Below are positions 1,375 through 61,700 of a stretch of 64,000 bases of DNA, in pieces. A program made the position numbers and the translations under genes. The stretch covers positions 2,234 through 66,233 of the forward strand of contig CAYNFQ010000002.1 in assembly GCA_964396715.1 (NCBI GenBank). Reading direction: 5' to 3'. Within the stretch, counting starts at the first letter, position 1. Each line of letters opens with the position of its first letter. This DNA comes from an uncultured Gammaproteobacteria bacterium (GTDB lineage: Bacteria; Patescibacteriota; Microgenomatia; Daviesbacterales; UBA10151). The notes below the pieces were generated by a model. That model had not been told where the DNA came from. It saw nothing but the letters and a program-made list of their open reading frames with translations, and searched no databases.

Positions 1375-4209
1375 TTATTTGTTAAATACCACCTCAAATG
1401 ACCGGTTGCGCGACAAATCTGTGGAGATGCTTTGCTCCTGCGGGCCAATCTCTATTCCCTGTTGGGAAGATAAACTGTAGTTTAACGGGTAGGTTAGACT
1501 CCACTCAAAAGGATCTTGTAAGGTGCCGGCCTGCTTGATAACATCCAGCCTGTATTGGGCTTTGCCCTCTTTAAAATCCAGTTTGGTAGGTATTTCATAA
1601 TCTAAAACCAAACTTTTTGCCTCTTTTGGCGAAAGTGAGATCAGGAAAGAATAACCTGACCTGCCGTAGTCCACAAAGCTCTCTACATCCTTGGTAATAT
1701 CACTCTCCCCCCACAAAACTCTCACTATTTTAGCCCCAAACGGCAGATAAACCCTCATCCTGTTTTTATATTTCCCGGCCGGCCAGCTGTTGGAGGGGCT
1801 TTTGTTAATATAACCAATCCGCAGTCTGTGCCTAAGATCCCCATCCTTGCCTACCACAGTTTCCAGGCGGTAATTTCTTTCCAGATAATAGTTGGCTTTA
1901 TTTGCCCCTAAATTGGCCTCTACAGGTGCTAGAAAATCCTGAAGCGTTCCGCCTGTTTCGCTGCCGGCCCTTGGCATAGCATTTGTCCAACCCTGGGAAA
2001 CAAGGTAGGAGAACAGTTTAGGATGATCCAGATAGATGCTCATATGCTTTTCCTCCAAAGATTTTCCCAAACTAGCTACAATCCCCGGCCAATTCTGGTT
2101 AGGCACAAAGATCAGTTTATTAAATAATTGGGAAGTCAGGGCTGTCAAAAAGTTTTTCTTGGCCTGGGAGCCCGGGAAAAAGCTTAACTCCGCATGAGCG
2201 ATGGCTTTTTCAAATAAGTTATCTGCAGTGATTTTTTCATTATAATCAGGCAAATCCAACGGCCCGATCGTCTCCAGTAAATTTTCCATAGCAGAAACAT
2301 CTAGGGCTAAAACTCCCTCCACTCTCTCCCCTGTTTCCTTATTGTAAAACCACTCTGATTGCCTGGCAGATGTGGGAAAATCCGGCTCCCAGTTGGCATC
2401 CCGCAGATACCAGTCTTTTTGTCCCAAATCCTCCCTGATCTCCTTTGGTGGTTCAACATGAAAGTTCAACTGTCCATCAATTGCATAGATATCCTCAACA
2501 TCCAATCTTTTCAGTTTTCCTCCCTCAAAAGTAATGAGGGCATATGAACCAATAAAACCGCCTGCTGGCCGAAGTTCCATATTATTTTGCAGCAGTACCA
2601 GATAGCTTTTAGCACCTTCCCAAGCCACCAGTCCGGGCAGTAAAACGCTCACGGCCCGGCCGTTTTTGACCAAATTTCTATAATGTGACAGTCTGCTTTC
2701 CAAACCATCCACTTGATCTTTTAAAATAGCGGGCAGACTCATTTTAAACTCCTCTGTATTTAATAAAGCGTAGGCTTTGGAAATTTGCTCATCAGCAAAG
2801 GTCAGCTGCAAATTAGCTTTCTCAAAATACTCTTTTGGTGAACCTGTTTCCTCCCCTGTGACGCTCCTAAGCCCCTGATAAAGCTCCTCCACTCCCAAAA
2901 CTGCTGACTTGGCTGACAGTATGGAATAAGTTGCCAGGGATGAAAGCCCGTCTCCAATACTGAAAGCCGGATCCAAAACTGGCATCTTTCTTAACGGTGC
3001 CAAAGATTTAAACATATTTTTCGCACCCCCAAGTCCGTATTCAGCCTGAGAAAGGTTGATTAAACTTTTGTCAAATTCCCCTTTTCCCAAATTTTTGGCA
3101 GCCTCAAGCAATTGGTACCTGAAAGTGAAAACTGCCCACCCGACTGAAACAGCCGGCCAAATCAGCGCATAAAAAATCAGCCCGATTGCCAAAGATAAAT
3201 AAATTTTGCCCAGAGGAAGTTTAAATTTTGGTAATTTAATTGCCCGCTTTGTTTTAGGTTTTGGTGCATCTTTTTTTTCTTCTCTTAAAACCTGCAGTTG
3301 TTCTTTCTTTTCATCTTCCATCTCAGGTACTTTTAACTCGTGGTCTTTAAAATAACTTAAAGTCTCCCTTAAGGCCTTCACAATGCCCACTCTTGGGCGC
3401 CAGTTTAAAAACCTGATGGTTTTTTCTGAGTTGGGAGTTGGCCAGGGCGGTAAAGATTGCGGGCTAAAACTTCTCTCCTCATACCACAAAGGGTCTAAAA
3501 GTATTTGTTTAATCTCCGCTACTTTGATTGGCGAAGATAAAACTCCGTCAAAGATTTTTTGGGCAGTTGCTCCTGAAAAGAGGCTTTTTACCATCAAATC
3601 CAGCGCATCCTCAATATACAAAGCCCTGGTGGAAAAATCCAAAGACACCTCTTTTTGTAAATCTTCCCTCAGGGCCTGCTGGATTAATTTCACCAGAGGA
3701 TCTTTAATCTGAAAGTGCATCCTTGGCCCGTACACCGGACCGAGCCTTAACACCCTGGCATTTAAATTATTCTCCTTGGCAAAGGCAGCCAGTTTAGCCT
3801 CTATTTTTTTAAGCCAGTCGTGCTCGCCCGACCCCCGATCATATAGCTCTATTGAGGAAAGCAGCAGGCACCTTGAACCTGTCTTTTTAAGTAGCTTTAA
3901 AATATTATCTATATTCCAATCTCTGCTGGTGGATAAAACCACATAATCCAGCCTGGGAATATCCAATTCCAAATTTTGAGCATTATCTACTATGAAATGA
4001 AAATTGTTGTCTTTGACAGCATTTTCCAGATTTTGCTTAAAACCTGTGGATAAGTTATCCACCCCGATCACCTGAATTCCTTTTTTCAGCAATTCATCAA
4101 CCAGAGAAGATCCTAAAAAACCCGCTGCTCCCACGACCAAAGCCACAGGAGTGTTTCGCGAAAGGCTTATACTATTTTTTTTGATGATATTTATCTCTGT
4201 TTCATCCAC
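1375..4209 (-). CDS. NAD-dependent epimerase/dehydratase-like Rossmann domain fused to a large membrane-anchored C-terminal domain (DUF4012-like), probable cell-envelope polysaccharide protein
   Basis: N-terminal VVGAAGFLGSSLVDELL GxxGxxG motif; central TM segment; approximately 550-aa C-terminal domain of unknown function. Confidence 0.5.
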   Translation of the reverse strand: MDETEINIIKKNSISLSRNTPVALVVGAAGFLGSSLVDELLKKGIQVIGVDNLSTGFKQNLENAVKDNNFHFIVDNAQNLELDIPRLDYVVLSTSRDWNIDNILKLLKKTGSRCLLLSSIELYDRGSGEHDWLKKIEAKLAAFAKENNLNARVLRLGPVYGPRMHFQIKDPLVKLIQQALREDLQKEVSLDFSTRALYIEDALDLMVKSLFSGATAQKIFDGVLSSPIKVAEIKQILLDPLWYEERSFSPQSLPPWPTPNSEKTIRFLNWRPRVGIVKALRETLSYFKDHELKVPEMEDEKKEQLQVLREEKKDAPKPKTKRAIKLPKFKLPLGKIYLSLAIGLIFYALIWPAVSVGWAVFTFRYQLLEAAKNLGKGEFDKSLINLSQAEYGLGGAKNMFKSLAPLRKMPVLDPAFSIGDGLSSLATYSILSAKSAVLGVEELYQGLRSVTGEETGSPKEYFEKANLQLTFADEQISKAYALLNTEEFKMSLPAILKDQVDGLESRLSHYRNLVKNGRAVSVLLPGLVAWEGAKSYLVLLQNNMELRPAGGFIGSYALITFEGGKLKRLDVEDIYAIDGQLNFHVEPPKEIREDLGQKDWYLRDANWEPDFPTSARQSEWFYNKETGERVEGVLALDVSAMENLLETIGPLDLPDYNEKITADNLFEKAIAHAELSFFPGSQAKKNFLTALTSQLFNKLIFVPNQNWPGIVASLGKSLEEKHMSIYLDHPKLFSYLVSQGWTNAMPRAGSETGGTLQDFLAPVEANLGANKANYYLERNYRLETVVGKDGDLRHRLRIGYINKSPSNSWPAGKYKNRMRVYLPFGAKIVRVLWGESDITKDVESFVDYGRSGYSFLISLSPKEAKSLVLDYEIPTKLDFKEGKAQYRLDVIKQAGTLQDPFEWSLTYPLNYSLSSQQGIEIGPQEQSISTDLSRNRSFEVVFNK

Positions 4210-4271
4210 GCGTAAATCGTAGCAGAGAAAAATAAGAATGCAATATGGAGGAAGTAGATCTTAATGGATAA

Positions 4272-4682
4272 TTATTGCTTATCAAGCGCCCAATTGGCCA
4301 GTTGGTCGGCTAAGGTATTTTGTGCGCGAGGAATGTGGCTGTAAACAACACCACCCAGCTCCATTGCTAAAATTTTAATTTGTTCAATCATTGGCTTAAG
4401 ATGTTTTGCTTTAACCTTAAACCTACCCGATAATTGTTCTGCCACCAGCTTTGAATCTGCAAAAAGTTCTATTTGAAGCTGTTCCTGCCCAGGTGCATAC
4501 TGCTTAATGTGTTTTAGCGCTGCCAAAACCGCAGTATATTCTGCTACATTGTTGGTGGTAATTCCAATTATTTTACCGACTTTGTGTAAAATATTGCCCT
4601 TCTCATCAGAAATCACAAAACCATAGGCTGCAGGTCCTGGATTACCGCGGGATGCTCCATCAGTAAATATGGTTAATTTCAT
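4272..4682 (-). CDS. rnhA: ribonuclease HI
   Basis: FTDGASRGNPGPAAYG signature and DEDD catalytic residues; 136 aa. Confidence 0.85.
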   Translation of the reverse strand: MKLTIFTDGASRGNPGPAAYGFVISDEKGNILHKVGKIIGITTNNVAEYTAVLAALKHIKQYAPGQEQLQIELFADSKLVAEQLSGRFKVKAKHLKPMIEQIKILAMELGGVVYSHIPRAQNTLADQLANWALDKQ

Positions 4683-5917
4683 CTTAACAGACTAACAAGC
4701 AGCATCAGCAAAATCAAGTACTCGGATACCACAGTGGTAGTGGCTGCTGCCATAAACGAATAAGCAGGGATGTAGATAAAATTTAAGACTAAGTTGATCG
4801 CCAAACCGAACGCGTAAATTATCAGCAATGTCTTATATCTACCCTTGCCAATTAAAATCCACATCAAAAGCGAGGACAAAAAATAGGCCGGGAAACCTGC
4901 GGATAATATTTGCAGGCTTTGAGAAGAACCGATAAATCCTCCTCCTGTCAAAAGATTTATCACGGTTGGCGCCAGCATGAGTGTTAGCGCCATACCCAAA
5001 CCAGCCAGCAACAATAAACCCAGTCCAATAATCTTGCTGCCTTGGTAAGATTTCAGCATCAGCGGATAATAAGCATTCATAATAAAGGTGGGCAAAACCA
5101 GGGCTGATTGGAAAATTGAATAGGCAATATTATATATTCCGGCATCAGATACACCTTTAAAATAGGCCACCATAAATGAATCTGCCCGAAAATAGATCAC
5201 ATTTAACCCTAAAGTTGCGGCAATGGGCCAACTGCTTGTGATAAGTTTTTTGGAAAAGGTCGCATCAAAAATAGGTGTCATTGTTTGAGTAATTTTCCTG
5301 GAAAATATTACAGCCAAAAAAACTACCAGTATCCAGTTTAAAACCTGGGCAAAGATTAAATACAAAAGGGGGAAGTTGGCATTAACAAACCAGATCACCA
5401 GCAATAAATTTAACACAGTGCCTGCTGATGTTGCCGCAACAGACAAATCATATCTTAATTTGGACTGAAACAACAAGTTAATGCTGACAAAAATGGCAGA
5501 TCCAAAAATGATCGGGCTGCCAAAGATAACCAGTTTTCTGAATACATCACCCCCGATAGGCAGAAGGGGGAGCACGATTATGGAAAGTGCCATTAGTATT
5601 GCTGCCCATACAATTCTTGTTCCTAAAAGTTTCCTAAACATCTGCTTCTGCAGACTGAAGACTGAAGACTGAAGACTTTTTAAAACATGCGCATTAAAAC
5701 CAAAATCGGAAAGCAGCATAAACATGGACAGGTAAGTCAGGGCCAGAGTAAAAATACCTGTTCCTTCCTCACCAAACTTTCTGGTGATAAGACCCAAGAT
5801 GATGATGGTGGAGAAAACAGACACGGCTTTGCCTGCAATCTGCCACATTGTTTGCTGGGAAATTTTTAAAATTTGACTCACGCTTTTAATTCTAACATGG
5901 AAAGGCTCAGTCCCCAA
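4679..5917 (-). CDS. polysaccharide biosynthesis flippase (MOP/Wzx-like), 12-14 TM
   Basis: Polytopic membrane protein with Wzx-like topology. The start is probably the internal Met near 5848, because the N-terminus overlaps the upstream gene. Contains an in-frame GACTGAA x3 tandem repeat at 5652-5676. Confidence 0.55.
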   Translation of the reverse strand: MGTEPFHVRIKSVSQILKISQQTMWQIAGKAVSVFSTIIILGLITRKFGEEGTGIFTLALTYLSMFMLLSDFGFNAHVLKSLQSSVFSLQKQMFRKLLGTRIVWAAILMALSIIVLPLLPIGGDVFRKLVIFGSPIIFGSAIFVSINLLFQSKLRYDLSVAATSAGTVLNLLLVIWFVNANFPLLYLIFAQVLNWILVVFLAVIFSRKITQTMTPIFDATFSKKLITSSWPIAATLGLNVIYFRADSFMVAYFKGVSDAGIYNIAYSIFQSALVLPTFIMNAYYPLMLKSYQGSKIIGLGLLLLAGLGMALTLMLAPTVINLLTGGGFIGSSQSLQILSAGFPAYFLSSLLMWILIGKGRYKTLLIIYAFGLAINLVLNFIYIPAYSFMAAATTTVVSEYLILLMLLVSLLR

Positions 5918-7155
5918 ATTAAAAATAGCAGTCTTATTCCTTGGGGCAGGGTTAAAAAGTAGTGATCAAATAATCCTAAAAATAGCATGGTTCCCCAAAT
6001 AATTGGAAATCTGTCTGCCGACAGGCAAGATTTGAGACCTGTCTGCCGACAGGCAAGATTGGAAATCTGTCTGCCGACAGGCAAGATTGGAAATTGTTTT
6101 AATATAGGATATCCCAAAAGCCCCAACCACCCTAACAGTCCCAACATCCCTGTTTCAGAAAGAGCCAAAAGGAAAATATTATGCACCGGCTGTAAAAAGC
6201 GGCTGGGGCCTGATATTAACTCAGACGACAAAGAGGGAATAAAGTTATTTAAACCTACTCCAGATACAGGATTTTTCCAAAATAGCTCCAGTGCTGATCT
6301 AGTCAATTCTTCTCTTCTCAAAAAAGTCAGCTGATCATAGTTAAATATGGCTGCAAAACGCGTATATAAAATGGGCATTAGCAAAAAAATAACCAAAAGC
6401 AACAGTAACCGTCCTCTGGTCTTAAGTATCAGCAGAGCAGATGCCAAGCCGGCAATTATGGCTGTTCTGGAAAAAGTAAGCAGTGTCGTCATTCCCGCGA
6501 AGGCGGGAATCCAATTAGCCGTTTTGTTTATGGATCCCTGCTTCCGCAGGGATGACAGGATCACAACTGTGATAACCATAAATGCAGCCAAAATATTAGG
6601 ATGGGGGAAGGTTCCATAAGGCCTTAAAAACTCACGTCCATAAAAATCAAACTTGGCAATACCAGGGGTGGAGAGAGAAAAACTGCGCTCACCCAGTATC
6701 CAAAGACCGATTGTGCCTTCTTTTAAAAACTGCAGGATTGCCAAGGTGGATTCAAAAAGAACCGCAAAAGCTAGCGGCGTATATAACTTTGCCCTCAGCA
6801 CTGCCCACTTTGTACTCGCTATATACACCCCAAACAGCCCTGCTATCAGATACTGCTCCAATCTGATAAACCCAACCCCCAATGCTTGCGGGTTAAAAAG
6901 CAGTGAAACAGTTTGAGTCAAAATAAAAAAATAAAAAAAAGTTAAGGCTAGTCTGTTGATGTGTTTACCGGAAAAAAGGCATACCACCCATAAAACAATT
7001 ACCAAAATATCCCAAAAATAAAGAGTGGGGGAAAGATAGTCAATTGGCAGGGAATAGATAAAAGAGAACTGGGGCCAGAAATGCCGTCCAAGCTGGGTGG
7101 GAAGGAAGAGCAGGACTAAAAATAGTAAGGTTCTTTCTAAATTCGCAAGAGTCAT
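5878..7155 (-). CDS. O-antigen ligase/Wzy-like polytopic membrane protein
   Basis: Multi-TM with a large periplasmic loop typical of the WaaL/Wzy family. The 3' end runs through a 28-bp x3 palindromic tandem repeat, so the true C-terminus is uncertain. Confidence 0.5.
   Translation of the reverse strand: MTLANLERTLLFLVLLFLPTQLGRHFWPQFSFIYSLPIDYLSPTLYFWDILVIVLWVVCLFSGKHINRLALTFFYFFILTQTVSLLFNPQALGVGFIRLEQYLIAGLFGVYIASTKWAVLRAKLYTPLAFAVLFESTLAILQFLKEGTIGLWILGERSFSLSTPGIAKFDFYGREFLRPYGTFPHPNILAAFMVITVVILSSLRKQGSINKTANWIPAFAGMTTLLTFSRTAIIAGLASALLILKTRGRLLLLLVIFLLMPILYTRFAAIFNYDQLTFLRREELTRSALELFWKNPVSGVGLNNFIPSLSSELISGPSRFLQPVHNIFLLALSETGMLGLLGWLGLLGYPILKQFPILPVGRQISNLACRQTGLKSCLSADRFPIIWGTMLFLGLFDHYFLTLPQGIRLLFLIWGLSLSMLELKA
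6003..6094. repeat. 28-bp tandem repeat x3, each unit containing hairpin CTGTCTGCCGACAGGCAAG
   Basis: Units at 6011-6030, 6039-6058 and 6067-6086, with TTGGAAAT/TTTGAGAC spacers. Confidence 0.8.
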
Positions 7156-7199
7156 TTCGTAACACTCGGAATGACTCGGAGGGCCAGAATTTCAGAATA

Positions 7200-7694
7200 T
7201 CAGACGGTCTGACTTTCTGATTTATCTGAGTCTTCCTGAGTTTTCTGGATCACTGGTTTTATCACCACATGCCTATCTCTTCCCTCGCCCACACTCTCAG
7301 TCATCAGTCCCTCTATCTCACCCACCACCATATGTACCACCCTTCTTTGCCAGGGAGATTGCGGCTCAAGTTCAATTTCCTTGCCTGTTGCCAAAACTTC
7401 CTTCCCCAATTCTTTTGAACGGGCAGCCAGTTCCTCTTCTTTTTGCTTTCTCCAGCCTGAAACATCCAAGATCACCCTTTTAAACCCTTCTTCTCCAGCT
7501 TTCTTGGAAATGATCTGGTTTATCAGAAGCTGCAATCCCTCCAAAGACTCGCCTCTTGTGCCAATCAGCCTTCCCGCATCTTTTGTTTCTATGGAAACCT
7601 CAAACCCCTGATCGGTTTCTTCAATCTCATAGCTTCCCTCCAAAAGAAGCAGCCCCAATATATTATCTAGTACATCTGATAGTTGTTTTTCCAT
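7200..7694 (-). CDS. jag: Jag/KhpB-like RNA-binding protein (KH + R3H domains)
   Basis: R3H-like C-terminus (QRRVVHMVV...); conserved position downstream of yidC. Confidence 0.7.
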   Translation of the reverse strand: MEKQLSDVLDNILGLLLLEGSYEIEETDQGFEVSIETKDAGRLIGTRGESLEGLQLLINQIISKKAGEEGFKRVILDVSGWRKQKEEELAARSKELGKEVLATGKEIELEPQSPWQRRVVHMVVGEIEGLMTESVGEGRDRHVVIKPVIQKTQEDSDKSESQTV

Positions 7695-7749
7695 AACTTA
7701 TTAAATTCGAAATCCTAATATAATTTTGGATTTTGATATTTGAATTTGT

Positions 7750-8607
7750 TTAGGATTTCGGGCTTCGAATTTTGAATTTTCCGACATAGTCGGATAATCC
7801 TCCCCAGCCGGAAATTTTATACTGCTGGATAATCCCCAGTATTGTATACGTATTCCAATAAATTGCAAGCCCTATGGGAAAAGTAAAGGCAAAATAACCG
7901 ATCATCACCGGCATTAGATATACCATTTGAGACTGAACCTGTCCCATACTCTCTTCCAAACCTTCTTTTTCTTTTTTCTCTTGCGGAGAATCCGCAGGAT
8001 AGGTTTTTACTGGTTTGGCAAGCATCATTTTGGACTGGACAAAGGTGAGGGCGGCGGTAATCAAAGGTATGGTCAAAAGAATTGGTCCGTAAGTTGTAAA
8101 CTCAGAGGGTTTGACTGCCAAGTTAATACCCAAAAAGCTCGGGTCCAGCCCTGGTGGAAGTTTTAAATTTGGAAAATAAAGCAGGGTATTAATCTTATCT
8201 ATCTGCCCGCCTGCGCCGGGAATAATATTTAACAGTGCCTGATATAAAGCAATAAAAATGGGGATTTGGATTAAGGCCGGCAAACAGCCGCCTGCCGGAT
8301 TAACACCGTGTTCTTTATATAAAGCCATTTGTGCTTGTGCCAAAGCCTGTTTATTGTCAGTGTGTTTTTTCTTAAGCTCGTCCATGTGCGGTTTTAAGTC
8401 TGCCATTTTTTTGGCTGATTTTATCTGGGAGCTCATAAAAGGCCAGACCAGGATTCTAATGATTACTGTTAAAAGAATTATTGATAATCCCAGGGCTCCG
8501 GGGATAGATACTGCTTGCAACCCCTGGAAAATTAGTACCAAAAGATTGACTGTCGGGCCGTAAAAAATCAGGTTAAAAATATCCCCTATTACCCCCATTA
8601 CCTGCAC
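7750..8607 (-). CDS. yidC: membrane protein insertase YidC/Oxa1 (short form)
   Basis: Conserved GCLPALIQIPIFIALYQAL motif; five TM segments; synteny with rnpA-yidD. Confidence 0.85.
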   Translation of the reverse strand: MQVMGVIGDIFNLIFYGPTVNLLVLIFQGLQAVSIPGALGLSIILLTVIIRILVWPFMSSQIKSAKKMADLKPHMDELKKKHTDNKQALAQAQMALYKEHGVNPAGGCLPALIQIPIFIALYQALLNIIPGAGGQIDKINTLLYFPNLKLPPGLDPSFLGINLAVKPSEFTTYGPILLTIPLITAALTFVQSKMMLAKPVKTYPADSPQEKKEKEGLEESMGQVQSQMVYLMPVMIGYFAFTFPIGLAIYWNTYTILGIIQQYKISGWGGLSDYVGKFKIRSPKS

Positions 8608-20660: not shown

Positions 20661-20865
20661 AACTATACGCTAAACGCTACTCTCTATACGCTTCGTTATA
20701 CAATGTGAAAAAAATAATGGCAAGCAGCACAAAGGGGATCATTATGGGACAAATATGGTTAAATGACAAAATCCAAATGCCAAATTACAAATGAAATCTT
20801 AATTTCAAATTTTAAATTTTAGTCATTTGATATTGGAAATTTGAAATTCTTATGTTATTCTTAAT

Positions 20866-21053
20866 TTGTGGTGCACTAGTCCGATGTCATATCGGACCAA
20901 GGTGCAAAAAGGGAATCCGGTTAAAATCCGGAGCTGTGCCGCAACTGTGATTAGTTAGAGAATAGTAAATAGCGTACAGCGTTTAGTTATAAACAACTAT
21001 ACGCTAAACGCTTCTCTCTATACCCTAACTTTAAGTCAGGAGACCGACCACAA
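20866..21053 (+). ncRNA. cobalamin (B12) riboswitch
   Basis: Core AAGGGAATCCGGTTAAAATCCGGAGCTGTGCCGCAACTGTGA. B12-box-like AGTCAGGAGACCGACC. P1 candidates TTGTGGT/ACCACAA. Lies in the 5' leader of 21078..21986. Confidence 0.6.
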
Positions 21054-21077
21054 TTTAGATCCCGTAGCAGGAAAAAT

Positions 21078-43669: not shown

Positions 43670-44107
43670 TAATGGGTGGAGATGGGCGGTTTGAACCGCC
43701 GTCCAAAATTGTGACTTTTAAAACTTCTACAAGCTTATCTTTACTATATTTTTGAGTGTTAATTTGTAACCGTAAAGAAGGAAGATTAACACTTAATCCA
43801 AATTTCTTGGTTCTGATTATGGATTAGATATCAGAAGCTGCATCCTGACTGGGTACATTACTTTAGGTTCTAGCCAGAAAAAGAATTCTAAAATAGATGC
43901 TTTAAGTTCTAGCGTATGCAACAGGAGTAAATACTCCAGTTACACCTGCAAAAAGTTTTGCAACTTCTTGCTCTGCCATTGCTTTGGCATCACGGACAAG
44001 TTTATTGCCGTTTGTTGTTTGAAACAGTATTTTACGTTTAATGTTTCCTTAACAGCTTGCAGTTTTTAAAGAGCAATCCTGTCGAGACTATACATCCCCA
44101 GGTCATT
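43670..44107 (-). ncRNA. ssrA: tmRNA (SsrA)
   Basis: 5' end GGGGAUGUAUAGUCUCGACAGGAU matches the tmRNA consensus GGGGcUGauUcuGGAUUCGACGGGAU. 3' tRNA-like end GGACGGCGGUUCAAACCGCCCAUCUCCACC(CA). Adjacent to smpB. Confidence 0.7.
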
Positions 44108-55619: not shown

Positions 55620-55910
55620 ATGCCAAAAAAGAAACAGCGTTTTGAATGGGACTTTGGAAATGTAGCGCATTTATGGGAGCGGCATCAGGTTCGACCGTTT
55701 GAGGCGGAAGAAGCAATGAAAGACCCTAATGCCATCAAAGGCCCGGATGAACCTCATTCCCAAATTGAAGCCCGTTTTTCAGTAATTGGTAAAACGCGAA
55801 AATCAAGAATACTCTTTTTGGTATTTACTACCAGATTCGGCCGTATAAGGATACTTCATGCACGGGACGTAAAACGAAAGGAGGTAAAAATTTATAAGCA
55901 AAGCTTGTAA
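55620..55910 (+). CDS. brnT: BrnT-like (DUF497) ribonuclease toxin
   Basis: FEWD..N..H...H.V...E.EE pattern. Confidence 0.6.
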   Translation: MPKKKQRFEWDFGNVAHLWERHQVRPFEAEEAMKDPNAIKGPDEPHSQIEARFSVIGKTRKSRILFLVFTTRFGRIRILHARDVKRKEVKIYKQSL

Positions 55911-55919
55911 ATAAGATTT

Positions 55920-56189
55920 ATGAAGAAAAAATTAATAGTACCTAAATTTAAAACTGAAGAAAAGGAGCATCAATTCTGGATGGAGATCGACCTGTCTGAT
56001 TATTTTGCTTCATCCGATTTTAAACATTTTGATTTGGAACAATTTCTAAAAGTTCATGGTGAGCAAAAAACAACCAGGGTAACGATGCGCATACCAACAA
56101 AGATTGTTAAACGCTATAAAGAGAGAGCTTCTGAACTTGATGTGCCATATCAAAGTTTGATGAAGCAACAACTGGCAAAAGGTATATAA
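55920..56189 (+). CDS. brnA: BrnA-like antitoxin
   Basis: 89 aa immediately downstream of BrnT; C-terminal RHH-like. Confidence 0.5.
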   Translation: MKKKLIVPKFKTEEKEHQFWMEIDLSDYFASSDFKHFDLEQFLKVHGEQKTTRVTMRIPTKIVKRYKERASELDVPYQSLMKQQLAKGI

Positions 56190-56314: not shown

Positions 56315-58090
56315 ATGGATGACAAAGATTTAATCAAAGAGAAAATTAATATTGTAGATCTGATCTCCGAGTATTTAACCTTAAAAAAATCAGGTATTAA
56401 CTTTAAGGCTAATTGCCCATTCCATAACGAGAAGACCCCGTCATTTGTAGTTTCACCGGAACGTCAAATCTGGCATTGTTTTGGATGTTCCAAGGGCGGC
56501 GACATTTATACCTTTTTAATGGAAAAAGAGGGGATGGAGTTTAAAGAAGCATTAGAGATTTTAGCAAAGAAAGCAGGAATTACCTTAACAAGAATTGAGG
56601 GCAAAAAAGATTTTCGGGATAGGCTATTTGAGATTAACCTGAAAGCCCAGGAATTTTTTCACTACATTTTAACCAAACACCCTTTAGGTAAAAGAGCCTT
56701 AAAATATTTGCAAGATAGGGGAGTGTCAGATTCTGCTGTTGAAGAATTCTGTCTAGGTTATGCCCCCAATTCCTGGGAGTCTTTGACAAAATTTTTACTC
56801 AAAAGACACTTTACCTTGAAGGAGATTATCGATTCTGGTTTAGGGGTGCCTGCAAAATCAGGCTGTTATGACAGATTCAGAGGCAGGATAACATACCCTT
56901 TAATTGATGGAAAAGAAAAATTAAGGGGTTTTTCCGGCAGGGTTTTGACCCACCAAGAGCCAAAATATATCAATACTCCCCAAACCCCCATTTTCGACAA
57001 AGGCAGTTTCCTTTTTGGCATGAATTTGGCAAGAGGAGAAATCAGGAATAAAAAGGAAGCTGTTTTGGTGGAGGGTGAGATGGATGTAATTTTATCCCAT
57101 CAGGCGGGCTTTAAAAACGTGGTTGCCTCAAAAGGTACTGCTCTAACAGAGGGTCAAATAGAACTGATTAAAAAATACACTCCAACTATCACCTTGGGAT
57201 TTGATATGGATTTGGCAGGAGATAGTGCCTGCCGGAGGGGTATTGAGATGGCAGATAAAGCAGGGTTGGATATAAAAGTTATTCAACTGATGGGCGGAAA
57301 AGATGCGGCTGATGCGGTACTGGAGGATGTGCAGGTTTGGCAAAAAGCCATAGAGGGGGCTGTACCGATTTATGATTATTATCTGGTATCCGTATCCAAA
57401 AGATTGGACAGCAAAAATCCGCAAGATCTGAAAAAAATCGGAGAAGAACTGATACCTGTTTGGGCAAAAATTACCAATGATTTGGTTCGTGAGCACTATA
57501 TTCAAAAGTTATCGGCATTTTTAAAAACCGATGAAAAAATAATCAGGGAAAATATTGATCAGACAAGAAAGGCGGGAATAAGCACTTTTACTCAGGTATT
57601 AAAACAGCATCCTGCTCAGGATAATGTGGTAGCTGTCAAAAACAGACGGGAGCTTTTGGAAGATTATCTAATAGCCCTCCTGCTTCATCCGCCTGCCGGA
57701 CTTAACTTTGTACCTAACTTTCCTGAAACGCTCTTTTTAAGAGAATACTTCAGACAGATTTATGTGCTGCTGTTTTTATATTTGGACTCAATATCGTTCA
57801 AAAGCCAGTCTTTTAATATTAATGAGTTTATTAAGGAATTGCCGAAAGAGTTACTTTCAGAAGTTGACAGGTTGTATTTAACGGAAATTGACAGTAAACT
57901 TCTCGATGGTAAACTTTGGCAGCAAGAGATAGAAAGTGTGGTTTCCGAACTTAAGAAAGCTTTAATCAAAGCTTCTTTGGAAAAACTCTCTTTGGAGATT
58001 AAAAATGCCCAGGAGTTTGGTAAGATGGAAGTGGTGGAGTCTTTGAACAAAAGATTTAGGGATTTATCAGTGAAGCTCAAGAATTTATAA
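56315..58090 (+). CDS. dnaG: DNA primase
   Basis: Zinc finger CPFHNEKTPSF...WHCFGC; TOPRIM domain. Confidence 0.9.
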   Translation: MDDKDLIKEKINIVDLISEYLTLKKSGINFKANCPFHNEKTPSFVVSPERQIWHCFGCSKGGDIYTFLMEKEGMEFKEALEILAKKAGITLTRIEGKKDFRDRLFEINLKAQEFFHYILTKHPLGKRALKYLQDRGVSDSAVEEFCLGYAPNSWESLTKFLLKRHFTLKEIIDSGLGVPAKSGCYDRFRGRITYPLIDGKEKLRGFSGRVLTHQEPKYINTPQTPIFDKGSFLFGMNLARGEIRNKKEAVLVEGEMDVILSHQAGFKNVVASKGTALTEGQIELIKKYTPTITLGFDMDLAGDSACRRGIEMADKAGLDIKVIQLMGGKDAADAVLEDVQVWQKAIEGAVPIYDYYLVSVSKRLDSKNPQDLKKIGEELIPVWAKITNDLVREHYIQKLSAFLKTDEKIIRENIDQTRKAGISTFTQVLKQHPAQDNVVAVKNRRELLEDYLIALLLHPPAGLNFVPNFPETLFLREYFRQIYVLLFLYLDSISFKSQSFNINEFIKELPKELLSEVDRLYLTEIDSKLLDGKLWQQEIESVVSELKKALIKASLEKLSLEIKNAQEFGKMEVVESLNKRFRDLSVKLKNL

Positions 58091-58155: not shown

Positions 58156-59262
58156 TTGTTACTAACCATTATGGCTAAACACAAGAAAGAAGTACAACTG
58201 GATGCTAAAAAATTATTAAAACTCGGTCAGGAACGGGGTTTCATTACCCAGGAGGAAATTTTGCAAATTTTCCCCAAGCCTGAAGAGGAAATTGAGAGTT
58301 TAGATGAATTCTATATTAAATTGATCAATGAAAACATTGATGTTTTTGAAACAACAGCAGAGGAGCTGGATGCCGATTCTAAAACCGCCACAGAGCTGGA
58401 GAAAGAATTGGAGCTGTTGTCCACTTTGGAAGAAGGCTCAGTGACAGATCCGGTCAGGCAATATTTGCGGGATATTGGCAAAATTCCTCTGCTAACAGCT
58501 ACTGATGAGATAGAATTGGCCAAAAAAGCGGAAAAAGGGGAGAAAAAAGCCAGAGACAGATTAACCTCTGCCAATTTGAGGCTGGTTGTCTCCATTGCCA
58601 AAAAATATGTCGGACGCGGCATGAGTCTTTTGGATTTGATTGAGGAGGGGAATATCGGGTTGATGAGGGCGGTTGATAAATACGACTGGAGAAGAGGCTA
58701 TAAATTCTCCACCTATGCCACCTGGTGGATTAGACAGGCTATCACCAGGGCCATTGCAGACCAGGCCAGGACCATCAGGATTCCGGTTCACATGGTGGAA
58801 ACCATCAACCGTTTTAATAGGACGCAAAGGAGGCTGATGCAGGAATTGGGTAGGGAACCGGCCCCTGAGGAGGTTGCCAAAGCTTTGGAAATTGACCCCA
58901 GCAAAGCCCGTGAGATTATCAAAGTTTCCCAAGAACCTACTTCTTTGGAAACGCCAGTGGGGGATGAGGAGGATTCTCATTTAGGGGATTTTATTGCTGA
59001 CCAGGGTTTACAGCCGGATGAGCAGGCCACTCGTGAGCTTTTAAAAATTCATTTAGATGAGGTGTTGGATTCGCTTTCCCCCAGGGAAAAAAGAGTGCTG
59101 CAGCTAAGATTTGGTTTGGAGGATGGGAAACAAAGGACATTGGAGGAGGTGGGGAAAGAGTTTGGGGTTACCAGGGAAAGAATCAGACAAATTGAGGCCA
59201 AAGCCATCAGGAAATTAAAGCACCCCACCAGGGCCAAAAAACTGCGGGACTACTTAGAATAA
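58156..59262 (+). CDS. rpoD: RNA polymerase sigma-70 factor RpoD
   Basis: Region 2.4 [25 protein letters not shown]; region 4.2 HTH. Confidence 0.9.
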
Positions 59263-59282
59263 TGTAAAATGTACAATGTAGA

Positions 59283-59648
59283 ATGTACAAAGAAGCTCCA
59301 ATTTATCACATCCGAGAGCGAAGCCTAAAATTCAGTATTCGAATAGTTCAACTAGTACGAACTTTCCCAAAAGACACTTCAGGATTCGCTATTGGCAATC
59401 AAATTATCAGGTCTGGAACAAGCGTGGGTGCAAATATAGAAGAGGCTCAAAACTGTGGATCTAAAAAGGAATTTATCCATACCATGACGATTGCTTTAAA
59501 AGAAGCTAGGGAAACAGAATATTGGCTTAAAATTACAAATGAGGTAAAATTAACCGATAAAGATTTGGTAAGTAACTTACTTTTAGAAGTAAACGAACTT
59601 ATCAAAATCTTAACTTCGATTATTAAGAAGTCAAAACTTAATAGTTGA
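59283..59648 (+). CDS. four-helix-bundle protein of the 23S rRNA intervening-sequence family, copy 3
   Basis: GTSVGANIEEAQNCGSKKEFIHTMTIALKEARETEYWL; flanked by inverted GTACAATGT/TGTACAAAG-type repeats. Confidence 0.75.
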   Translation: MYKEAPIYHIRERSLKFSIRIVQLVRTFPKDTSGFAIGNQIIRSGTSVGANIEEAQNCGSKKEFIHTMTIALKEARETEYWLKITNEVKLTDKDLVSNLLLEVNELIKILTSIIKKSKLNS

Positions 59649-59733
59649 TCGCACCTTAAATTTTATTTCTTTGTACAGTTTATATATTGTATTTTTATAC
59701 ATTTTACATTGTAAATTGTACATTGACCTATAT

Positions 59734-59997
59734 TCCCCTGTAGCTCAACGGTAGAGCGGGATCCTGTAAAATATTGCAGCTTCTTCGAAAAATCGGAGTT
59801 GAAAAATTGGGTTAATTGTCGGGAAACCTTTAAAATGGTAATCCGCAGCCAAGGTCCGATGTAATATCGGACAAGGTTCAGAGACTATACGCCTGAAGCC
59901 TAAAGCGAAAGCAATGGTTATGAGATAGTCCAAGTCCTGATGAAAATCGGGAGCACTTGTAAGATCAAGGTTCGTGGTTCGAATCCACGCGGGGGAG
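59734..59997 (+). tRNA. tRNA-Asn(GUU) interrupted by a 192-nt group-I-like intron (exons 59734-59767 and 59960-59997)
   Basis: Exons assemble to TCCCCTG-TA-GCTC-AACGGTA-GAGC-G-GGATC-CTGT^TAA-GATCA-AGGTT-CGTGG-TTCGAAT-CCACG-CGGGGGA-G, closely resembling E. coli tRNA-Asn. 5' exon ends in U and the intron ends in G. Confidence 0.6.
59768..59959 (+). ncRNA. group-I-like intron in the tRNA-Asn anticodon loop
   Basis: AAUCCGCAGCCAAG...AAGGUUCAGAGACUAUAC ... GAUAGUCC P7 pairing. Candidate P1 between exon CUGU and intron GCAG. Confidence 0.55.
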
Positions 59998-60023: not shown

Positions 60024-61700
60024 TTAGGCAATAGCGGGAATAAGGGAGGGTCTGACTTTCTCTATGTCTTCTCTTATCTGTTGTACTAGTCTAAAATCCT
60101 CAAATGTTTTGATAGTACATGCTAATTGTGCAGTTGTATTAAAGTTATGATTCTCGGCACTTGTTACACCAAGGTGAGCCTCATTAAGAACCTGAAGTGC
60201 CGGTGTATATTCAACTTCCACGATTTTCTTGTCTTTTGCCCATATCTTTTGAAAGAAGAAGTGCAGGTAGGCCCTTTTATGGTCTATATCAGCTTTAGCA
60301 TAGCTTCTAGCGATATTTCTAGTTAATTCCAATACGTCATTTACTACCGATATATCAACTGTTCTTATCTTCTCTACCTCTGCTAATTCCTTTTGAATAG
60401 CAAGCATTTCTGCATCTAATTTAGCATTAAGCCTTAGCAGTAATTCAGCAGGTATCTTGTTATTACCATAATCGGTTTCTATCTTTTCTTTTCTCATTTC
60501 AATAGCATCGCGCCTGTTACAGATACCCTTTCTGAAAACTTTTACTCTCTCAATACTGTCTGTATAAACCTCATTTATGTATTTATTAACTGCATCAATG
60601 AAATCTTGCTTAAATTCCAGTTTTTCAACTTGATCCTGTACTTGCTGTTCGAGATCAGTTAGCAATACATACCTTGAGGGACACTTGCCACGTTTCCCAG
60701 TTTGACTGCAGTGGTACATTCCAATTCGGCCATTACCTGTTTTATATTTTTCGTGATAGTGCCATTCAGCCACATACCTGCGACCACAGTCTTTACAAAA
60801 TACAATTCCCCTAAGCAGAAAGTTGTGTTTTCTTTTTCTCAATCCAAAAGCACCCTTTTCATCCAGGATTTTCTGTACTAAATCAAAAGTTTCTTTATCA
60901 ATTATTGGCTCATGCTTACCCATACCCTCCAAACCTCCATGATGCATCCAACCCCAATGAAATTTGTTTCTTAACATTGTGTGAGTAACTGAAAATTGTA
61001 ATGGTCTTCCTTTCTTGCCCAAAACACCATGCTTATTTAGATACTGCCGAATATCGTAAATTGAATAGTTACGAGTTGCATACATTTTAAATGCTTGAGT
61101 AATAAACGGAGCAGAGTTAGGGTCAGGGACTACAATTTTTTTATCATAAGAACCACTTGGGTTAGGATTAAGTATGTTTTTATAGCCTAAAGGAGCAACG
61201 GAAGGATAATAACCTGCTTTGAATTTCTCTGCGGCTGTTTGTTTGACTTTGAAGCTGGTCATTCGTGGATGCAGGGCATTTACGACCGCCATCATTTCAT
61301 CCATTGTCTGGCTTATTGGATCGTCATCAACTATTCCTGTGAGGGGAATGACTTTAACTCCGAATTTTTTCAACTCACTTTTGATATATAGGTATTCGAA
61401 AGTATTGCGGGAGATACGGGAGCTATCTTGAACGATTAAATAGTCAATGTCTTTTTTAGAACACCTAGCTAAAAGAGCTTGGAGTCCTGGCCTATTCATC
61501 GAAGTTCCCGATATGCCATTATCAATGTAACAATCTTCGGCAAGATAACCACCTAAATCTTCTATCTTTTCGAGTATCTTTATCTGCTGGGTTTCAATGC
61601 TTAGATTATCCTTTTGTTCCAACGTAGATACCCGGCAATATGAAAGACAGGCAGGTTTTTTATTGTTTTCGCTGATTGTTTGGTTATCTGATGATCGCAT
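60024..61700 (-). CDS. large serine recombinase (resolvase/invertase N-domain + recombinase + zinc-ribbon domains)
   Basis: Catalytic CLSYCRVSTLEQ...; approximately 560 aa typical of phage/ICE serine integrases. Confidence 0.85.
   Translation of the reverse strand: MRSSDNQTISENNKKPACLSYCRVSTLEQKDNLSIETQQIKILEKIEDLGGYLAEDCYIDNGISGTSMNRPGLQALLARCSKKDIDYLIVQDSSRISRNTFEYLYIKSELKKFGVKVIPLTGIVDDDPISQTMDEMMAVVNALHPRMTSFKVKQTAAEKFKAGYYPSVAPLGYKNILNPNPSGSYDKKIVVPDPNSAPFITQAFKMYATRNYSIYDIRQYLNKHGVLGKKGRPLQFSVTHTMLRNKFHWGWMHHGGLEGMGKHEPIIDKETFDLVQKILDEKGAFGLRKRKHNFLLRGIVFCKDCGRRYVAEWHYHEKYKTGNGRIGMYHCSQTGKRGKCPSRYVLLTDLEQQVQDQVEKLEFKQDFIDAVNKYINEVYTDSIERVKVFRKGICNRRDAIEMRKEKIETDYGNNKIPAELLLRLNAKLDAEMLAIQKELAEVEKIRTVDISVVNDVLELTRNIARSYAKADIDHKRAYLHFFFQKIWAKDKKIVEVEYTPALQVLNEAHLGVTSAENHNFNTTAQLACTIKTFEDFRLVQQIREDIEKVRPSLIPAIA

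Follow-up and report, generated by a model that had tools for sequence, protein, structure and literature searches.

A group I intron inside the anticodon of a tRNA-Asn(GUU) gene belongs to a large, under-described family

Introduction

How can a bacterium decode asparagine codons if its tRNA-Asn gene is interrupted inside the anticodon itself? This question is raised by nucleotides 59734-59997 of a 64,000-nucleotide (nt) stretch of the metagenomic contig CAYNFQ010000002.1 (contig positions 2,234 to 66,233; this whole stretch is referred to as the window, and coordinates are those of the window unless a contig is named). The original prediction, made from the letters of the window, held that this interval encodes a tRNA-Asn(GUU) split by a group I-like intron, and that an Asn host would be unusual for such an intron. 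In bacterial tRNAs, the fMet, Ile and Arg introns are found at position 36/37, 3′ of the anticodon, and the Leu intron at position 34/35.

In our judgement, the locus is very likely a chromosomal tRNA-Asn(GUU) gene of an uncultivated, Daviesbacteria-like groundwater bacterium of the Candidate Phyla Radiation (CPR). It is located at a conserved dnaG-rpoD-tRNA-Asn position, and a compact group I intron separates its U35 from its U36; the intron lacks an open reading frame (ORF) and is probably of the bacterial tRNA-intron class usually called IC3. The intron belongs to a large under-described family, and its predicted mechanism is of an already known kind.

Results

The split gene and its core motifs were located as follows:

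59734-59997, + strand: split tRNA-Asn(GUU) gene, interrupted between anticodon U35 and U36
59734-59767, + strand: 5′ exon of 34 nt (tRNA positions 1-35), comprising acceptor, D arm, 5′ anticodon stem and loop C32 U33 G34 U35 (ARAGORN, spliced and unspliced; colinear with uninterrupted tRNA-Asn genes)
59768-59959, + strand: group I intron of 192 nt, last base G
59960-59997, + strand: 3′ exon of 38 nt, from U36 to discriminator G73 (ARAGORN)
59840-59853, + strand: core motif AAUCCGCAGCCAAG (sequence)
59876-59887, + strand: core motif GUUCAGAGACUA (sequence)
59924-59930, + strand: GAUAGUC (sequence)

Joining the 5′ exon (UCCCCUG UA GCUC AACGGUA GAGC G GGAUC CUGU) to the 3′ exon (UAA GAUCA AGGUU CGUGG UUCGAAU CCACG CGGGGGA G) yielded a clean 72-nt cloverleaf that ARAGORN typed as tRNA-Asn(gtt), with U1-A72, discriminator G73 and the anticodon loop CUGUUAA. 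The intron mode of the same program typed the unspliced DNA as tRNA-Asn(gtt) i(35,192), so that the proposed Asn(GUU) identity, the split site CUGU^UAA and the length of 192 nt were all recovered exactly. The GUU anticodon, G73, the cloverleaf obtained after intron removal and the colinearity with uninterrupted orthologues all agree with a tRNA-Asn(GUU). CCA is absent from the encoded 3′ exon and must therefore be added post-transcriptionally. In its default mode, ARAGORN missed the split gene and called the five other tRNAs of the window.

The covariance model that the original prediction had named for its verification, RF00028 (Intron_gpI) of Rfam, gave 81.9 bits at the locus, well above its gathering score of 50 (E = 2.7e-19), and the related loci L157, L203 and L186 scored 90-106 bits. 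This model alignment was correct over the paired regions P3-P9; its 5′ end (59671-59717) spuriously put P1 and P2 on an AT-rich stretch upstream of the tRNA, and the helices in fact lie at 59764-59798. The secondary structure was built manually on the basis of the sequence and the Rfam alignment (intron nt n corresponding to window coordinate 59767 + n), and contained the following elements, with the support for each (from the alignment of 85 introns described below) in brackets:

59764-59779, + strand: P1, exon C32-U35 (CUGU) and intron A1 A2 with U7 U8 G9 C10 A11 G12 (nt 1-2 plus exon / 7-12), loop AAUA (sequence; covariation)
59783-59798, + strand: P2 hairpin of 6 bp, nt 16-21 / 26-31 (6 of 6 pairs changed on both sides, 97.8% paired)
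59807-59812 with 59891-59896, + strand: P3, nt 40-45 / 124-129 (compensatory changes in 4 of 6 pairs, 98.8% paired)
59817-59823 with 59842-59847, + strand: P4, nt 50-56 / 75-80 (Rfam alignment; covariation)
59826-59839, + strand: minimal P5, nt 59-61 / 70-72, enclosed by P4 (Rfam alignment)
59849-59876, + strand: P6/P6a hairpin, nt 82-83 / 108-109 and 87-93 / 99-105 (compensatory changes in 7 of 7 P6a pairs, 92% paired)
59881-59887, + strand: P7 5′ strand, G114, bulged A115 and G116-A120, inside GUUCAGAGACUA (Rfam consensus; 99.8% paired)
59926-59931, + strand: P7 3′ strand, nt 159-164, inside GAGAUAGUCC (99.8% paired)
59897-59919, + strand: P8 hairpin, nt 130-133 / 149-152 and 138-139 / 144-145, GAAA loop (4 of 4 basal pairs covary, 97.9% paired)
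59932-59934 with 59956-59958, + strand: P9.0, AAG/CUU, nt 165-167 / 189-191 (3 of 3 pairs compensatory, ~85% paired)
59935-59952, + strand: P9, nt 168-174 / 179-185, GAAA tetraloop (7 of 7 pairs compensatory, ~85% paired)
59959, + strand: omega-G, nt 192, final intron base (sequence)

All group I core elements that had been proposed were present at their positions, as was the P1 between exon CUGU and intron GCAG, with its U35-G9 wobble at the 5′ splice site. The P3-P8 and P4-P6 domains were complete, with the 3′ strand of P4 falling inside AAUCCGCAGCCAAG, and P7 (114, 116-120 / 159-164) formed the pseudoknotted, guanosine-binding helix. The predicted terminal G was found at 59959, preceded by a covarying P9.0, and this omega-G was the only choice that gave both the 7-nt loop CUGUUAA and a tRNA of normal length. 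The insertion lies in the anticodon loop (U35/U36), as in bacterial tRNA introns, with the exons held by the anticodon stem that pairs across the intron (G28-C42, A29-U41, U30-A40, C31-G39); no convincing P10 helix was found. The internal loop of P8 (CCUAAAG/CAAUGG) resembles the 11-nt tetraloop receptor (CCUAAG/UAUGG) at one step from the canonical form, which is found exactly in some relatives (L136: CCTAAG...TATGG). As claimed, the intron encodes no substantial ORF, the longest on its own strand having 21 codons.

Support for this fold came from a MAFFT alignment of the window intron and 84 other tRNA-Asn introns (n = 85), onto which the hand-built P1-P9 and anticodon-stem structure was projected. 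Standard pairs occupied 94.1% of 5236 cells, compared with 34-42% when the 3′ partners were slid by 1-3 columns, and both-sided changes occurred in 43 of 63 pairs (1258 compensatory cells); none of 500 shuffles reached the observed values. Compensatory support extended over the anticodon stem, the P1 extension, P2, P3, P4, P6a, P8, P9.0 and P9, with the anticodon stem spanning the intron being 97.2% paired and covarying in all five pairs. Over the 85 sequences, the P1 extension pair read AU (41), GC (15), CG (9) or UA (2), the P4 pairs alternated between CG and GC, or among CG, GC and AU, and P7 was essentially invariant. The invariance of exon CUGU, of guide GCAG and of some of the P4/P6 core was imposed by the search pattern, and the terminal G and following UAA of the relatives were fixed by the choice of splice site.

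With regard to the integrity of the window copy, it agreed with the family consensus at 82 of the 83 columns conserved in at least 90% of sequences, and its one broken pair (G27-A43) lay in the tRNA. The catalytic core shows no sign of decay. With 192 nt, the intron is one of the smaller members of the family (range 181-352 nt, median 233 nt), and many relatives carry an additional hairpin between P7 and P3′.

The P1 helix also bears on the typing of the tRNA. At about 25 homologous loci, ARAGORN intron mode returned 'Thr(tgt) pos33', from which one could suppose a mis-typed tRNA-Thr(UGU) with its intron two bases further upstream. We regard this as scarcely credible: these calls read one and the same junction two bases out of register (CU+UGUAA versus CUGU+UAA), which would make the intron end in U instead of G and would abolish the CUGU/GCAG P1 with its U-G wobble. 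Moreover, all such bodies show features typical of Asn (the TCC... start, U1-A72 and a discriminator G), and all retype as Asn under group I rules.

From the observed anatomy, covariation, colinearity and conservation we infer a catalytic RNA that would follow standard group I chemistry. The gene would be transcribed as a precursor of ~264 nt, in which the intron would fold into P1-P9 and its guide UUGCAG would pair with C32-U35 and the first two intron bases, so that the U35-G wobble comes to lie at the 5′ splice site. P7 would then bind a free guanosine, which would attack 3′ of U35, after which P9.0 would position the terminal G (59959) into the same pocket and the 3′-OH of U35 would attack after G192. 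The exons would be kept together by the anticodon stem, as Zaug and colleagues reportedly demonstrated in 1993 for the Anabaena pre-tRNA-Leu intron (listed in PMC3984707), and not by P10; their ligation would create the loop CUGUUAA with anticodon G34-U35-U36 in a normal tRNA-Asn. The intron is, in our judgement, a genuine and probably functional group I tRNA intron of ordinary mechanism.

Several observations weigh against this interpretation. The structure was built from the window's own sequence, which biases both the slid controls and the count of broken pairs in the window. At the 83 conserved columns, the window copy departs only at intron nt 22, where the P2 loop (L2) opens with A in place of the family's G, so that the loop reads AAAA where the family has GNRA (usually GAAA). 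In addition, P5 is cut to ~3 bp, whereas most relatives carry a longer, receptor-like hairpin starting with CCUAA. Two tertiary clamps may consequently be weak, and efficient splicing may need high Mg2+ or a protein.

The altered L2 and minimal P5 motivate the alternative of a real intron that is not an autonomous ribozyme in vivo, its trimmed periphery requiring a host chaperone or splicing cofactor. That the intron is among the shortest of its family fits this alternative as well. Against these points stand the intact P3-P8 core, P7 pocket, P9.0 and P9 GAAA loop, and the lack of any candidate cofactor gene linked to the locus. Similarly small tRNA introns self-splice, the Azoarcus intron measuring ~200 nt. 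Taken together, we rate dependence on a cofactor as unlikely, although it merits consideration, and favour a self-sufficient intron.

Whether the tRNA and the intron truly belong together could be judged from independent assemblies. A contig from a separate sequencing run (L004, SRR12113418) was 100% identical to the window over 59081-59995, and the locus is therefore not an assembly artefact. The short-read contigs L002 and L003 both end at window position 59759, within the tRNA 5′ exon, likely because conserved tRNA k-mers split the assembly graph, with strain heterogeneity at the locus as a possible further cause. These two contig ends would be the argument for a chimera of a tRNA gene and an unrelated group I intron. 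However, such breaks are expected in metagenome contigs, L004 covers the entire intron without a mismatch, and the same architecture recurs in at least ~93 other genomes, leaving a chimera with a negligible probability.

To estimate how widespread such introns are, species-representative genomes were scanned with the pattern CTGT-N4-14-GCAG-N42-72-GGNAATCCNNAGCCAAG, which gave at least 120 matches; all counts are lower bounds. The 3′ splice sites were enumerated under length limits, since ARAGORN absorbs leftover intron into variable arms. The matches were distributed as follows:

At least 85 loci: tRNA-Asn(GUU) split at 35/36, typed directly
2 loci among the matches listed: Asn-like bodies mis-typed by the fallback (L223, L238)
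6 loci among the matches listed: Asn-type 5′ exons with a 3′ part outside the fetched block
At least ~93 loci: tRNA-Asn in total
At least ~13 loci: tRNA-Tyr(GUA) split at the same position after CUGU, mostly in Omnitrophota
At least 1 locus: tRNA-Asp(GUC) with a clean cloverleaf (L161)
2 loci among the matches listed: classical CAU-tRNA introns picked up by chance (L127, L151)
About a dozen loci among the matches listed: other or unclear

By record title, the hosts among the matches listed were mostly Patescibacteria, including Saccharibacteria, Paceibacterota and Nomura-, Collier-, Davies-, Beckwith-, Peregrini-, Zambryski-, Adler-, Buchanan- and Berkelbacteria. Further titles named Omnitrophota, Elusimicrobia, Limnocylindria/Chloroflexota, Aminicenantes/Acidobacteriota, Planctomycetota, Spirochaetia, and delta- and gamma-proteobacterial metagenome-assembled genomes (MAGs). 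Some of these labels look doubtful; for example, two 'uncultured Pseudomonadales' MAGs (L165, L172) share an identical tRNA-Asn sequence with a Collierbacteria locus (L236). The Asn, Tyr and Asp tRNAs have G34-U35 and the loop start CUGU in common, and CUGU is what the guide GCAG reads.

In one MAG (CAYHKW01), related group I introns interrupt two different tRNAs at the CUGU site, one Asn (L189) and one Tyr-like (L229). The 'His' call obtained for the latter was rejected on account of its poor anticodon stem and Tyr-like body, and the gene is probably a tRNA-Tyr with a wrongly placed 3′ splice site. The longest 'intron' of the family (352 nt; L147, 1498-1873) includes a stretch of Ns as well as a duplicated core segment, and is almost certainly a scaffolding artefact. 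No endonuclease-bearing long introns were seen in the family among the matches listed, where the 3′ range covered was 560 nt in most loci and 3.5 kb in unclassified ones. The generic core motif AATCCNNAGCCAAG...GGTTCAGAGACT was discarded as a marker of the Asn introns, since it is typical of group I introns in general. It occurs in at least 120 viral contigs, some of them giant-virus MAGs, and ARAGORN assigned hardly any of these to tRNA genes. One such viral contig (L079, IMGVR_UViG_3300034096_001425) contains five copies of the motif within 7 kb (1591-8163).

The presence and absence of the intron were compared at the same genomic position. The gene order dnaG-rpoD-tRNA-Asn(intron) was found in about 20 CPR loci, including L186. 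In a sample of 80 metagenome loci anchored on RpoD and unselected for the intron, an uninterrupted tRNA-Asn followed rpoD in at least 8, none of them with the group I core motif, which indicates that empty sites exist at this position; the sample spans many phyla rather than close relatives and yields no prevalence within Daviesbacteria. In one of these loci (L246, RpoD 69% identical), the intron-less tRNA-Asn has a CTGTTAA loop, is 83% identical to the spliced product of the window and shares its acceptor stem.

The nearest named relative among the fetched loci was Candidatus Daviesbacteria RIFCSPHIGHO2_02_FULL_39_12 (L186), whose RpoD and DnaG are 92% and 74% identical to those of the window, pointing to a Daviesbacteria-like Microgenomates bacterium of the CPR (Patescibacteria) as the host. 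Its intron was only 61% identical to that of the window, from which it differs in P4 sequence type, in having a larger P8 and in an additional hairpin after P7, and its tRNA exons were only 76% identical. The nearest introns were instead those of L203 (76%) and of Collierbacteria. A crude neighbour-joining tree (188 conserved columns, without support values) likewise placed the window with L203 and the Collierbacteria clade, apart from L186, whereas most other clades tracked host phyla (Limnocylindria, Aminicenantes, delta-proteobacterial MAGs, Parcubacteria groups) and the Tyr introns formed one clade. This pattern suggests that the introns were for the most part inherited vertically within phyla, and that now and then an intron, or an entire tRNA locus, was replaced. 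As no listed member is long enough for a homing endonuclease gene, any mobility would proceed via reverse splicing or recombination.

In the analysis, the window was assigned to contig JACPUL010000006.1 of NCBI assembly GCA_016192255.1. The genes around the split tRNA-Asn were the following:

56315-58090: dnaG, upstream of the split tRNA-Asn together with rpoD
58171-59262: rpoD
59283-59648, + strand: gene for a 121-aa four-helix-bundle protein of the 23S_rRNA_IVP family (PF05635), between rpoD and the tRNA
60024-61700, - strand: gene for a 558-aa large serine recombinase, convergent, ending 26 nt past the 3′ end of the tRNA-Asn

The 23S_rRNA_IVP gene is missing from L186, in which the tRNA directly follows rpoD. 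Beyond the recombinase (to 64000; L001, 10742-20366) are phage-like genes, encoding SpoVG-like, DUF5659, helix-turn-helix, D12 methyltransferase and LexA/S24 repressor proteins, followed by a gene with a Piwi domain (prokaryotic Argonaute). The convergent layout of tRNA-Asn and recombinase, 7-754 nt apart, recurred in twelve other intron-bearing loci (including L191, L163, L172, L214, L237 and L133), so that the site looks like a recurrent integration hotspot. No att-type direct repeat of the tRNA 3′ end (exact match of at least 14 nt) was found in the window and 5.6 kb downstream, as expected for a serine recombinase, and a promoter and terminator scan around the gene gave nothing beyond the level of shuffled sequence.

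The adjoining mobile element with its serine recombinase is what could speak for a dead tRNA-Asn pseudogene with a non-splicing intron, Asn then being decoded by another gene in the genome. Judging from the locus itself, we find this improbable, as the copy shows no decay, has all of its intron helices intact, departs from the family at just the one conserved position mentioned above, and occupies the conserved rpoD-adjacent slot of tRNA-Asn. Single-copy tRNAs are, moreover, usual in CPR genomes.

Some further features of the region were recorded. The dnaG ORF of L186 (939-3980) encodes 1013 aa, compared with 591 aa in the window, and its ~400 additional aa, located right after the conserved HCFGC zinc-finger motif, look like an intein. 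In the window, dnaG is preceded by a BrnT/CopG-type toxin-antitoxin pair (55620-56189, + strand), and a comparable two-gene pair (94 and 86 aa, read from ORFs) lies downstream of the tRNA-Asn in L186 (5672-6219), suggesting local rearrangement around a conserved dnaG-rpoD-tRNA block. Elsewhere in the window are a transfer-messenger RNA gene (43674-44099, - strand; RF00023, 100 bits) and a cobalamin riboswitch (20852-21066, + strand; RF00174, 63.6 bits).

Discussion

Among known systems, the window intron can be compared with that of Azoarcus sp. BH72 tRNA-Ile(CAU) and the related proteobacterial CAU-tRNA introns (IC3), which likewise lie in the anticodon loop, lack an ORF and measure ~200 nt. 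Shared with this type are the architecture P1-P2-P3-P4/5/6-P7-P8-P9 without P5abc or P2.1, the GAAA loop of P9, the receptor-like P8 and exons held by the anticodon stem, and the two CAU-tRNA introns picked up by the scan (L151 from Giesbergeria, and L127) also contain the core motifs and reach 92 and 66 bits with RF00028. It differs in its host (Asn, not Ile), its insertion after U35 and not after 36, its guide pairing GCAG/CUGU, its truncated P5 and its L2 of AAAA, and overall identity to the CAU-tRNA introns is only ~50% (with a provisional Azoarcus sequence in the comparison). The IC3 subgroup is characterised by a compact form, with P2 but neither P2.1 nor P5abc, and by L2-P8 and L9-P5 tetraloop-receptor clamps. 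Of these features, the window intron has the compact form and the L9 GAAA, and its P8 is a near-receptor, with L2 and P5 deviating as described.

The tRNA-Leu intron of cyanobacteria and plastids is also ORF-less and inserted inside the anticodon, is self-splicing there, and has the core AAUCC..AGCCAAG ... GGUUCAGAGACU in common with the window intron. Unlike the latter, which lies at U35/U36 of an Asn tRNA in the CPR, it sits between U34 and A35 and occurs in cyanobacteria and plastids. Its distribution is described as patchy, being present or absent among relatives (PMC179611, as cited in PMC8450103). The introns of tRNA-fMet (cyanobacteria) and tRNA-Arg(CCU) (alpha-proteobacteria) are further sporadic group I introns of the anticodon loop, and tRNAscan-SE misses them (PMC8450103); some fMet introns carry a homing endonuclease ORF, whereas no listed member of the Asn family is long enough for one (longest 352 nt).

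Within the same host radiation, group I introns are known from other structural RNA genes, namely 16S and 23S rRNA, where they often encode LAGLIDADG endonucleases, unlike the window intron (PMC11270868, PMC8172020). Archaeal and eukaryotic bulge-helix-bulge introns interrupt the anticodon loop as well, including that of tRNA-Tyr. These, however, are cut by a protein endonuclease and joined by a ligase, are usually found at 37/38 and have no ribozyme core, whereas the core of the window intron is complete.

The claim that an Asn host would be unusual stood only in part. It holds relative to the classical literature (Leu(UAA), fMet, Ile(CAU), Arg(CCU)), a host list that is historical and not mechanistic, and the searchable literature, which omits most subscription journals, yielded no account of a group I intron in a tRNA-Asn, so that an earlier description is possible. 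A 2014 review of bacterial group I introns contains no Asn case (PMC3984707), tRNADB-CE lists introns in Burkholderia tRNA-Leu(TAA) genes (PMC2686568), and tRNAscan-SE 2.0 lists fMet and Ile2 cases and was not designed for such introns (PMC8450103). Lui et al. 2021 mention group I introns in some CPR tRNAs without reporting isotype or site (PMC8172020). In sequence databases, however, the Asn location is not rare, as is attested by the family described above, which is spread without annotation over dozens of uncultivated bacterial lineages.

The main interest is accordingly the large unannotated Asn/Tyr/Asp family and the genes missed because of it, more than the single locus. Default tRNA finders miss such genes, as ARAGORN did here and as can be expected of tRNAscan-SE, which is not built for them (PMC8450103). 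Many CPR, Omnitrophota and other MAGs will consequently seem to be without tRNA-Asn or tRNA-Tyr, and this apparent tRNA loss skews completeness estimates and genetic-code inferences. The textbook list of bacterial group I host tRNAs is hereby lengthened, and an insertion site inside the anticodon (35/36) is added to it.

Tentatively, and with more doubt than confidence, one could see in these introns a single large undescribed endonuclease-free lineage, whose guide GCAG targets the CUGU of G34-U35 (queuosine-family) tRNAs and which has moved among Asn, Tyr and Asp tRNAs and among phyla, most plausibly by reverse splicing or whole-locus replacement. Asn decoding in reduced CPR genomes with single-copy tRNAs would then hang on a guanosine-requiring ribozyme. 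A family of at least ~100 members, together with intron-less alleles at the same syntenic position, offers a natural data set on the persistence and movement of group I introns that lack an endonuclease. For the host itself, if this is the only tRNA-Asn gene in its genome, the translation of all Asn codons would rely on RNA self-splicing.

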